In this document: positions 19,408 to 20,400 of the stretch, piece by piece
Position numbering within the stretch: the first letter of the stretch is position 1
Layout of the letters: each line of letters starts with the position of its first letter
IMG/VR virus record: IMGVR_UViG_3300049215_000197
Span: 1-41,473 of that record
Origin: a virus
Length of the DNA stretch: 41,473 bases
Strand: one strand, 5' to 3'
Notes under the pieces: generated by a model
Database searches by the model: none
The model's input: the letters and a program-made list of their open reading frames with translations, nothing else
Told to the model about the DNA's origin: nothing
Position numbers and translations under genes: made by a program

Positions 19408-20400
19408 ATGACTCAACGATTTATAAAATTTATTCCCTCATCAAAGTCAGAATGGCTAATGGAAAAGCACCCATTCGCTTTCCTTTTGCTATCAATAATT
19501 GCTATACGCGCTCGCAGGATTCCTAATCAGATAGATGGACTGGAAGTTGGAGAGGCTAAAATTGGGGATTGGAAGTCGCTAGGTGGGACCTATAGTCAGT
19601 ATCGTACAGCCCTGGAAATTCTGGAAAAATATGGCTTTATAAAAGTCATCTTCACAAACAAGAAAAAGGGAATTCTCGAAAAATGCAAAAATTTAGCGAC
19701 TAGGATCGCGACATTAAGGGCCATCAAAGGCACTGTTGTAAAGCTTTTAAATTCAGATATTTGGGACATAAATTTTGAAGGTTATGGCCATCAAGATCGC
19801 GACATGGATAACGACTTAATCGCGACCTGGTCGCGACTTGATCGCGACGAAGAAGAAGGAAGAAAGAATGATAAGAAAGAAGAAAGAAAAGATATAAATC
19901 CTCCTCTCCAAACCTCTCCCCCTACCCCACATGGAGGAGGAGGAGATTCATGCGAATCGAAAAAGGAAGATGAAGTCCCGAAAGTTTACGCTTGCCTTGT
20001 CGAGCTTGCTATGGAATACTTCATGAAGCAGCGCATAACTCGTGAATGCCCTGACGAAGTGCGACTTTGCCGTGCCGTATTAAGGGCCACTGCACCAGGA
20101 TTCGTAGCCAAAGACCTTGCAGCTGTGATACTTACGAACTATGCTAAAAACTTACCCGTGAAGGAGAAACCAGTGAACACGAAAGAAGCCATGATCGAGA
20201 ATAACCGAGACTTTGCCAATCGCCAGCTTCCGCATGACATTGAATCCAGCGATGGAAGCAGCTCAATCAGGAAAAAAGATGTAGGAGTAGAAGTTAAAAT
20301 TCATAAGCTATTCAGAATCATAGGTTTCCTACAACCAGAAGACGAATTCAGAGAAGCCTTACAAGGGGCAATTAACAAATTCGATTTAGAGGCCATTTAA
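19408..20400 (+). CDS. Replication initiator/replisome-organiser-like winged-helix protein (330 aa)
   Basis: The N-terminus (FAFLLLSIIAIRARR...GEAKIGDWKSLGGTYSQYRTALEILEKYGFIKV) resembles wHTH domains of phage O/DnaD-like initiators. An iteron array and a purine-rich tract lie inside the gene. Confidence 0.5.
   Translation: MTQRFIKFIPSSKSEWLMEKHPFAFLLLSIIAIRARRIPNQIDGLEVGEAKIGDWKSLGGTYSQYRTALEILEKYGFIKVIFTNKKKGILEKCKNLATRIATLRAIKGTVVKLLNSDIWDINFEGYGHQDRDMDNDLIATWSRLDRDEEEGRKNDKKEERKDINPPLQTSPPTPHGGGGDSCESKKEDEVPKVYACLVELAMEYFMKQRITRECPDEVRLCRAVLRATAPGFVAKDLAAVILTNYAKNLPVKEKPVNTKEAMIENNRDFANRQLPHDIESSDGSSSIRKKDVGVEVKIHKLFRIIGFLQPEDEFREALQGAINKFDLEAI
19795..19848. promoter_or_regulatory. Iteron array (candidate origin of replication). 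(G/A)(A/G)TCGCGAC copies start at 19795, 19818, 19829 and 19840. There is a degenerate copy near 19810 and an outlier at 19704.
   Basis: Read directly: gatcgcgac / aatcgcgac / ggtcgcgac / gatcgcgac. The last three have 11-bp phasing. A roughly 50-nt A+G-only tract follows (19849-19900). Confidence 0.6.

Follow-up and report, generated by a model that had tools for sequence, protein, structure and literature searches.

A probable replication initiator gene of a tailed phage with a predicted origin inside its own coding sequence

In bacteriophage lambda, the replication origin ori, which is composed of iterons and an AT-rich tract, is situated midway along the initiator gene O, and among the Stx phages the number of iterons varies (6 versus 4) together with matching insertions in the protein (PMC7466680). 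In phage SPP1, the origin oriL, made up of direct repeats together with an AT-rich DNA unwinding element, is likewise located within gene 38, and the later replication of this phage is driven by recombination with the assistance of an exonuclease, an annealing protein, and a resolvase (PMC6316719). Herein, we describe a locus of comparable design in the IMG/VR virus record IMGVR_UViG_3300049215_000197, of which the whole stretch of 41,473 nucleotides (nt), hereafter referred to as the window, was analyzed. The open reading frame (ORF) at 19408-20400 probably encodes a replication initiator, and the origin of the phage probably resides inside the same gene. The locus was found to comprise the following elements.

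19408-20400, + strand: initiator-like gene encoding 330 amino acids (aa), with an N-terminal winged-helix domain, a disordered linker, and a unique helical C-terminal half (from the ORF, homologues, and models)
19408-19782, + strand: conserved N-terminal DNA-binding domain, aa 1-125, predicted in an AF2 model to be arranged as helix-helix-strand-helix-wing (hairpin)
19694-19712, + strand: upstream iteron pair, TAGCGAC at 19694-19700 and TCGCGAC at 19706-19712, 12 bp apart
19797-19848, + strand: five-site iteron array, TCGCGAC at 19797, TAACGAC at 19809, and TCGCGAC at 19820, 19831, and 19842, with a spacing of 12-11-11-11
19849-19898, + strand: purine-rich, A+T-rich tract, a putative DNA unwinding element, which encodes EEEGRKNDKKEERKDIN in the disordered linker

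The heptamer TCGCGAC was present on the + strand in only five copies within the 41,473 nt, at 19706, 19797, 19820, 19831, and 19842, all of which fall within 19706-19848, and a sixth match, on the - strand at 19830, represents the overlap of the palindromic TCGCGA. The number expected by chance on both strands was 0.9 +/- 1.0, and none of 100 shuffled sequences reached 6. The initial annotation of this DNA had reported the 9-mer (G/A)(A/G)TCGCGAC at 19704, 19795, 19818, 19829, and 19840, an exact spacing of 11 bp among the last three, and a degenerate copy in register near 19810; the positions and the spacing were confirmed exactly, and the degenerate copy was identified as TAACGAC at 19809-19815, located 12 bp after the copy at 19797 and 11 bp before that at 19820. 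We also recognized one in-register copy absent from that annotation, TAGCGAC at 19694-19700, which precedes the 19706 copy by 12 bp and forms the upstream pair with it, the gap from the second site of the pair to the array (19713-19796) being given as 79 bp. Tandem Repeats Finder (TRF) delineated the 11-bp array at 19795-19848 with 4.8 copies, and the same array taken as period 22 was the top-scoring tandem repeat of the window. The array lies at 39-44% of the gene length, and GATC overlaps the sites at 19704, 19795, and 19840. Neither another iteron-like array nor a second cluster of cores was found elsewhere in the genome. An inverted core copy at 19575-19581 was rejected as a chance occurrence, being conserved in no relative.

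Within the gene, the heptamer is read in three codon phases, namely GAT CGC GAC (DRD), ATC GCG ACC (IAT), and TCG CGA CTT (SRL), with the last copy again giving DRD. Successive copies occupy different codon phases because 11 is not a multiple of 3, and the constraint is therefore one on the DNA, with no peptide repeat underlying it. The reservation raised initially, that the repeats might merely mirror a DRD/SRL peptide motif conserved as protein, can be set aside on two grounds, the use of three phases and the retention of the DNA architecture in the homologues. The upstream pair encodes L-A-T-R-I-A-T, which falls in a low-confidence insert between the wing strands (aa 83-108, pLDDT 65-69).

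Comparison was made with 22 distinct related loci collected from Logan, ENA, JGI, IMG/VR, and one GenBank phage. The same layout was observed at the same codon positions in 22 of 22 loci, each with a core of its own. Relative to the conserved IWDIN codon, the typical layout consists of the pair at -48/-36, the array at +31/+43/+54/+65/+76, and the purine tract after it; the pair is at -60/-48 in the window and in locus L010 and at -48/-36 in most relatives, and the copy number of the array ranges from four to six. The core copies in the relatives are all in the coding-strand orientation, and almost none occur elsewhere in the gene. About 10 core variants were distinguished (TCGCGAC in the window, GGGCGAC, GGGCCAC, TCGCCAC, AGCGAC, AACGAC, GACGAC, GACAAC, AACCAC, and AACCAAC), and all sites within one genome, the upstream pair included, change their core in concert. 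Between the AACGAC and AACCAC lineages, the sole difference in the upstream pair is a synonymous Thr position (ACG versus ACC). For homologues in which the peptide after IWDIN reads NHxINHRxTTxQPxxNH..., a different 11-bp-phased repeat was predicted from the peptide and was then confirmed in their DNA. The architecture is conserved with lineage-specific cores, and the concerted change of the cores is the signature of a cognate protein-site pair evolving together.

Immediately after the array, the initial annotation had noted about 50 nt made only of A and G. A purine tract is indeed present there and is the most purine-rich of the genome, but it is not composed solely of A and G, the quoted string itself holding two T's. 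Within 19849-19893, 42 of the 45 nt are purines and the A+T content is 71%, and this is the only 45-nt segment genome-wide with at least 41 purines or pyrimidines. The tract is also the least stable 40-mer inside the ORF and ranks among the least stable 1.4% genome-wide. In the relatives, too, the array was followed directly on its 3' side by a purine- or A-rich tract (17 of 21 by a strict best-window measure). Furthermore, the ratio of AGR to CGN among the Arg codons was 35:8 in the tracts versus 141:240 in the remainder of the genes (p = 3e-8), and this bias suggests a strand-composition constraint on the tract.

As for the protein, the database gene call (P0001, 313 aa) begins at Met18 (position 19459), and the true start is the ATG at 19408 because the homologues conserve RFIKFIPS upstream of Met18. 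A profile search retrieved 4,034 representative clusters (50% identity) at E<=1e-3, including 311 at E<=1e-30, and no match was obtained in Pfam, PHROG, NCBIfam, or PADLOC to the window protein or to any of 59 diverse family members; the protein is thus a member of a large uncurated family annotated as "hypothetical" everywhere. Only the N-terminal 40-50% is common to the 13 close homologues, the homology to relatives stops right after the purine tract, and the C-terminal half had no relatives among the fetched family members. A sequence search of the PDB with the family profile gave only spurious low-complexity matches. The AF2 model of aa 1-131 (pLDDT 83.6, pTM 0.75) was compared with the PDB using Foldseek, and nearly all top matches were winged-helix DNA-binding proteins (CodY-C, ArsR/SmtB, MarR, TubR, and RTP), with a best E of only 0.05 and a weak match to TubR (E about 1). 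Structural matches in BFVD included a "Replisome organizer" (E 0.011) and, weakly, "lambda GpO N-terminal" (E 0.012, probability 0.47). The N-terminal domain is confidently modeled as a winged helix, and this model, together with the replication-gene context in the relatives, upheld the initial impression of an initiator-like N-terminus. Residues 123-193, which correspond to the array, the tract, and a Pro/Gly stretch, were predicted to be disordered, the segment encoded by the array and the tract (pLDDT <50) lying between the winged-helix domain and the C-terminal helices.

The relatives carry the gene in early/replication and recombination modules, where it is flanked by genes for Erf/RecT, YqaJ, RusA, and Cro-like helix-turn-helix (HTH) proteins, and its context in these genomes is that of a replication module. 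In 9 locus records (8 distinct), a gene for a DnaC/IstB-like AAA+ loader (160-230 aa) begins a few nt from the stop codon. In the cultured Vibrio phage 1.177.O (MG592544.1, 40095-42205; L022 5992-8102), the "hypothetical protein" NVP1177O_71 was revealed to be a member of the initiator family, its gene having three perfect 11-bp units, one upstream copy, and an A-rich tract, and NVP1177O_72 ("P-loop NTPase"), whose gene follows without an intervening base, is a full-length DnaB helicase; RecT and RusA flank the two genes, both of which are candidates for re-annotation. In the closest homologue, the gene overlaps that of a Toprim+DnaB_C primase-helicase and comes after Cro/cI-type HTH genes and RecT, and in one relative the replication module adjoins packaging genes. 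The proposal in the initial annotation of a lambda-ori-like arrangement inside an initiator-like gene was accordingly supported by comparative evidence, namely the DNA-level repeat, the conserved layout, and the replication context in the relatives.

[quoted passage not shown]

L015 3987-4313: ~100-aa ORF after the initiator gene
L016 3978-4352: ~100-aa ORF after the initiator gene
L019 3957-4268: ~100-aa ORF after the initiator gene
L020 4103-4399: ~100-aa ORF after the initiator gene
L021 2175-2522: ~100-aa ORF after the initiator gene

We infer from these data that the product of the ORF binds the repeats, that the tract melts, that a DnaB_C helicase is the partner, and that replication starts at this locus. 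In the proposed mechanism, the winged-helix domain would bind the five-site array (19797-19848) and the pair (19694-19712) with one protomer per 7-bp core at an 11-bp pitch, the protomers lining up head to tail along a single face of the helix. The resulting nucleoprotein complex would distort the DNA, thereby straining and opening the adjoining tract at 19849-19898, and the lineage-specific C-terminal half would recruit the replicative helicase. The recruited helicase in the window phage would probably be its own DnaB_C-type helicase (35419-36297), and the recruited partner in the relatives would be the DnaC-like loader, the DnaB, or the primase-helicase encoded immediately downstream. The order of the elements in the direction of transcription, iterons and then the AT-rich tract, matches that of the annotated lambda ori in O and of SPP1 oriL in gene 38.

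Several observations weigh against an origin and its initiator at this locus. The window gene lies on the opposite strand between the portal and terminase genes with no helicase or loader gene adjacent, and no recognised helicase or loader gene was present downstream in nine of the relatives. Because the C-terminal half is unique, the assignment of the helicase partner is a guess. No match to any Pfam initiator family was obtained; in particular, neither the window protein nor the 59 family members matched the lambda O family (Pfam PF04492, Phage_rep_O), and homology to lambda O was not significant in an hhalign comparison of the two N-terminal profiles (probability 5.5%, 20 columns). The fold matches were statistically weak (best E 0.05). 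As for the tract, it is not the genome-wide minimum of stability, a charged K/E linker could be the cause of part of its purine bias, and a specific conserved box within it was not established, given that the identity among loci was 0.90 against 0.81 +/- 0.08 for a composition-matched null. Cumulative GC skew, proposed in the initial annotation as a check for an inflection, was uninformative since it tracks gene orientation and has its global minimum near 28-29 kb; it gave no support to the locus, where the + strand ORF showed no more than a slight local bump.

A bolder formulation, which we regard as rather unlikely, is that the family constitutes a distinct class, in which single winged-helix protomers polymerise at an 11-bp pitch like a centromere-coating filament, unlike the lambda O-some, and in which two of the sites encode the protein's own wing tip, coupling site and specificity. 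The wing-tip peptide, x-[T/A]-T-x-x-[T/A]-T, has Thr with ACGAC or ACCAC cores and Ala with GCGAC cores. The wing tip is encoded by the upstream pair, and a change of iteron therefore necessarily alters the reader protein; if true, such coupling between site and reader could explain the concerted origin of the about 10 core variants.

The tight coupling to loader or helicase genes in the relatives and the conserved purine/A+T tract after the array would both be left unexplained if the repeats bound the product of their own gene merely as an autoregulatory operator or a transcriptional roadblock, with the origin located elsewhere or replication being dependent on recombination. This explanation, which we consider unlikely, draws on the location of the sites inside the protein's own transcription unit, on the distance of the gene from the helicase gene, and on the full recombination set encoded by the phage (Erf, exonuclease, and RusA), as is the case in SPP1. 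It is opposed by the lack of any other origin-like array in the genome, and in lambda, origin function and an intragenic location coexist.

A region without long ORFs at 27.4-28.2 kb was considered as a competing origin and rejected, as it contains only two-copy repeats and terminator-like hairpins and no array. This region (27383-28202, ~820 bp) carries two similar terminator-like hairpins (27528 and 27626; AAAAAGTAA(G/A)CCCCC...) as well as a 22-nt repeat, TCTTAATnGnATCTTAATCTAT, at 27486 and 27845. It is not iteron-like and may be a regulatory or small-RNA region.

Recognition of the array by a factor other than the ORF product, whether a host protein, another phage protein, or a reader related to methylation or restriction, could be imagined from the presence of GATC in three of the window sites and from the palindromic nature of TCGCGA. 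In the relatives, however, cores such as AACGAC, AACCAC, GGGCCAC, and others have neither GATC nor a palindrome while the architecture is unchanged, and the lineage-specific cores always travel with the N-terminal domain, as would be expected of a cognate protein-site pair. In addition, DnaA boxes were not enriched in the genome and none was found near the locus. We thus hold this explanation to be quite improbable.

It is very improbable that the array is a centromere coated by a TubR/ParR-like winged-helix protein, as in the partition of a plasmid-prophage, or a pac site. TubR is among the weak fold matches, the genome has an Xer-like recombinase and a ParB_N-like gene, the locus adjoins those of the large terminase TerL and the portal, and short direct repeats at an 11-12-bp pitch resemble parC and tubC. 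Nevertheless, no NTPase of the ParA, ParM, or TubZ type was found adjacent to the gene or among the scanned ORFs of the window, and most relatives with a known context have the gene in an early/replication module, coupled to loader or helicase genes. With regard to packaging, a separate 106-aa ORF that overlaps the start of TerL is the likelier small terminase.

Finally, the notion that the repeats and the tract have no function at the DNA level and are by-products, through replication slippage, of a low-complexity charged linker is strongly disfavoured and the least probable of all. In its favour, the region encodes a disordered linker, the tract identity among loci is near the compositional null, and the copy number varies from 4 to 6 among the relatives. 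Against it, the same heptamer is kept in three frames with different peptides, and the 12-11-11-11 register stays at unchanged codon positions across 22 divergent relatives. The upstream pair, located in the coding region of the folded domain, changes together with the array core, synonymous sites included, and the remainder of the genes lacks the cores.

With respect to the genome as a whole, the ends of the window (1-127 and 41347-41473) are 100% identical over 127 nt. This identity reflects an assembly overlap and implies that the genome is complete, at 41,346 bp, and either circular or circularly permuted. The window is that of a tailed phage, in which the structural ORFs form a long block on the - strand, and the features related to the surroundings of the initiator gene and to the helicase are as follows.

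16909-18870, - strand: P22-type portal (library matches)
19319-19346, + strand: candidate promoter for the + strand cassette, TAGAGA-16-TAGAAT with TG (consensus scan, weak evidence)
20746-20766, - strand: terminator-like hairpin ending the TerL transcript, a 9-pair stem followed by T8
20851-22182, - strand: large terminase TerL (library matches)
35419-36297, - strand: DnaB_C-type helicase, 292 aa (Pfam DnaB_C, 1.2e-26)

The initiator gene and the next ORF, which encodes 75 aa and has no assigned function, constitute a small + strand cassette between TerL and the portal, and the hairpin at 20746-20766 sets this cassette off as a unit of its own. The cassette has promoter-like sites on both sides, and their number in the consensus scan was no higher than in shuffled sequences. 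The gap between the portal gene and the cassette (18871-19407, 537 bp) contains four terminator-like hairpins on the - strand, a scan of 2.1 kb giving 6 such hairpins where 1.8 would be expected on the basis of shuffles. Two short inverted repeats are located just upstream of the ATG (19331-19369 and 19361-19410). These hairpins and inverted repeats may serve as insulation between converging or diverging units or as operator sites.

The helicase gene lies 15 kb from the initiator gene on the opposite strand. Its product is 46% identical to aa 213-470 of the primase-helicase encoded directly after the initiator gene of the closest homologue, and it matches the DnaB_C part alone of that Toprim+DnaB_C protein; only DnaB_C was detected in the window helicase, with no Toprim or primase part. 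The two ORFs upstream of it (36243-36581, which overlaps the helicase start, and 36611-36886) had no family matches. The primase domain of the window phage may have been lost or replaced, or the helicase gene may be split. The genome holds a single copy of the initiator's N-terminal domain, with no second one at the canonical slot upstream of the helicase.

Among the other genes of the window were those for an RNA ligase, an Xer-like tyrosine recombinase, a ParB_N/GmrSD_N-like protein, a RusA-like resolvase, an exonuclease, and an Erf-type annealing protein. The 241-aa ParB_N/GmrSD_N-like protein (PHROG "ParB-like partition protein", 5e-26) is encoded in a low-GC island at 32500-33600 (GC 0.30 versus about 0.42), to which the gene of the Xer-like tyrosine recombinase (31344-32249) adjoins; the island and the recombinase suggest that a nuclease or partition-like module was acquired or that the phage lives as a plasmid-prophage. 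A 257-aa protein encoded at 38924-39697 on the - strand contains a DXD glycosyltransferase region, for which a match to the catalytic glycosyltransferase domain of TcdA/TcdB was likewise obtained (E 2.5e-7); the protein may be a glycosyltransferase that modifies the host or DNA. Just upstream of the terminase operon, ARAGORN called a tRNA-like gene at 22522-22593 on the - strand with a four-base anticodon "cgat" and an identity not determined, which was not called by Rfam at the gathering score and may represent either a degenerate tRNA or an unusual one of the frameshift type; the single Rfam match in the window was a tRNA located elsewhere than at the initiator locus. No matches to the defence-system models of PADLOC were obtained.

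The portal-terminase region showed no DNA similarity to annotated phages. Regarding the host, the closest relative of the terminase (55% identity) was found on the 242-kb contig CAWDQB010000068.1 (L027) of an Acidobacteriaceae metagenome-assembled genome (MAG), and weaker relatives occurred in very diverse MAGs. The initiator gene was not found within 10 kb of any terminase relative, and a search of the genome collection for the host found no members of the initiator family. Any assignment of a host from the terminase relative is therefore tentative.

As regards significance, a large "hypothetical" phage family (4,034 clusters, with a protein of the cultured Vibrio phage 1.177.O among its members) gains a testable function and an origin predicted at base-pair resolution, and a likely start of replication is identified for a 41.3-kb phage that otherwise has its replication genes dispersed. 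The combination of the pair, the 12-11-11-11 array, and the purine tract at fixed codons offers a signature for the annotation of origins in metagenomic phages, and the lineage-specific cores constitute a natural data set on the co-evolution of winged-helix specificity and binding sites. Furthermore, a coding sequence that overlaps an 11-bp-periodic DNA signal in three frames is a clean textbook example of dual coding.

In comparison with the known systems, the locus most resembles lambda O/ori. In both, direct repeats followed by an AT-rich tract occupy the middle of the initiator gene, the iterons lying at 39-48% of O and at 39-44% of the gene described here; the N-terminal domain binds DNA and the C-terminal part contacts the partner, these roles being predicted ones for the window protein; the helicase loader is the product of the next gene, as in the O/P pair, in relatives of the window protein; and the number of iterons varies between relatives. 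Unlike lambda, whose 18-bp sites at 39034, 39054, 39078, and 39101 are spaced by 20-24 bp, the window has 7-bp cores at an 11-bp pitch in head-to-tail orientation, and its family possesses an extra upstream pair inside the coding region of the DNA-binding domain, in the wing insert. No loader or helicase gene follows in the window genome.

The resemblance to gp38/oriL of the Bacillus phage SPP1, gp38 being its replisome organizer, lies in the location of the repeats and the AT-rich unwinding element within the gene of the origin-binding protein itself, in the genes for the gp39 loader and the gp40 DnaB-type helicase that follow gene 38, as a loader or helicase gene follows in relatives of the window protein, and in the set of exonuclease, annealing protein, and resolvase, which the window encodes as well. 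In contrast, SPP1 has a second gp38-bound origin, oriR, and the window has no second cluster of cores. A protein of the gp38 or DnaD-like type was not indicated by Pfam, PHROG, or NCBIfam at E<=0.01, the only match being the structural one in BFVD mentioned above.

"Initiator plus loader" (lambda) and "initiator plus helicase" (P22) are known types of replication module, and Weigel and Seitz in 2006 reportedly classed P22-type modules (gene 18/gene 12) as "initiator plus own helicase". Some of the relatives, which pair the initiator directly with DnaB (Vibrio phage 1.177.O) or with a primase-helicase instead of a loader, conform to the P22 type, and the window phage also encodes a DnaB_C helicase of its own; its initiator and helicase genes, unlike those of the P22-type module, are 15 kb apart and on opposite strands.

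In E. coli oriC, low-affinity DnaA boxes, 9-mers separated by 2 bp, are arranged at an 11-bp pitch beside the unwinding element, and in ParR/parC and TubR/tubC, short sites in the same orientation at about one helical turn allow a head-to-tail filament to form on one face of the DNA. The short same-orientation sites and the pitch of about one turn are shared by the present array, whereas the proteins differ (DnaA being an AAA+ protein and ParR a ribbon-helix-helix protein), and the sites of those systems are intergenic and those described here intragenic. The centromere systems also have an adjacent NTPase; no partition NTPase (ParM/TubZ) was found either in the window or beside the homologues, and the locus was not assigned to ParR/parC or TubR/tubC. 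Nor was it assigned to the plasmid iteron Rep proteins (WH1-WH2, Rep_3), as one winged helix was modeled, no Pfam Rep family matched, and the structures of RepE, RepA, and pi were not among the top 50 PDB fold matches; the iterons of plasmid Rep are 17-22 bp long and lie outside the gene, unlike the intragenic 7-bp cores.

Taken together, the direct repeats lie inside the gene of the probable initiator itself, in the part coding for the linker between the two domains, an A+T-rich, easily melted tract (19849-19898) adjoins them, and the repeats are constrained as DNA and co-vary with the initiator lineage; an adjacent gene for a loader (9 records, 8 distinct), a DnaB (1), or a primase-helicase (1) was found in the relatives and none in the window. 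From these sequence comparisons, the locus is best filed as a new family of a known kind, the origin embedded in a phage initiator gene, which would work like lambda O/ori from outside the lambda O family. Its novelty is modest and resides in the new uncurated family and in the unusual geometry of its iterons.

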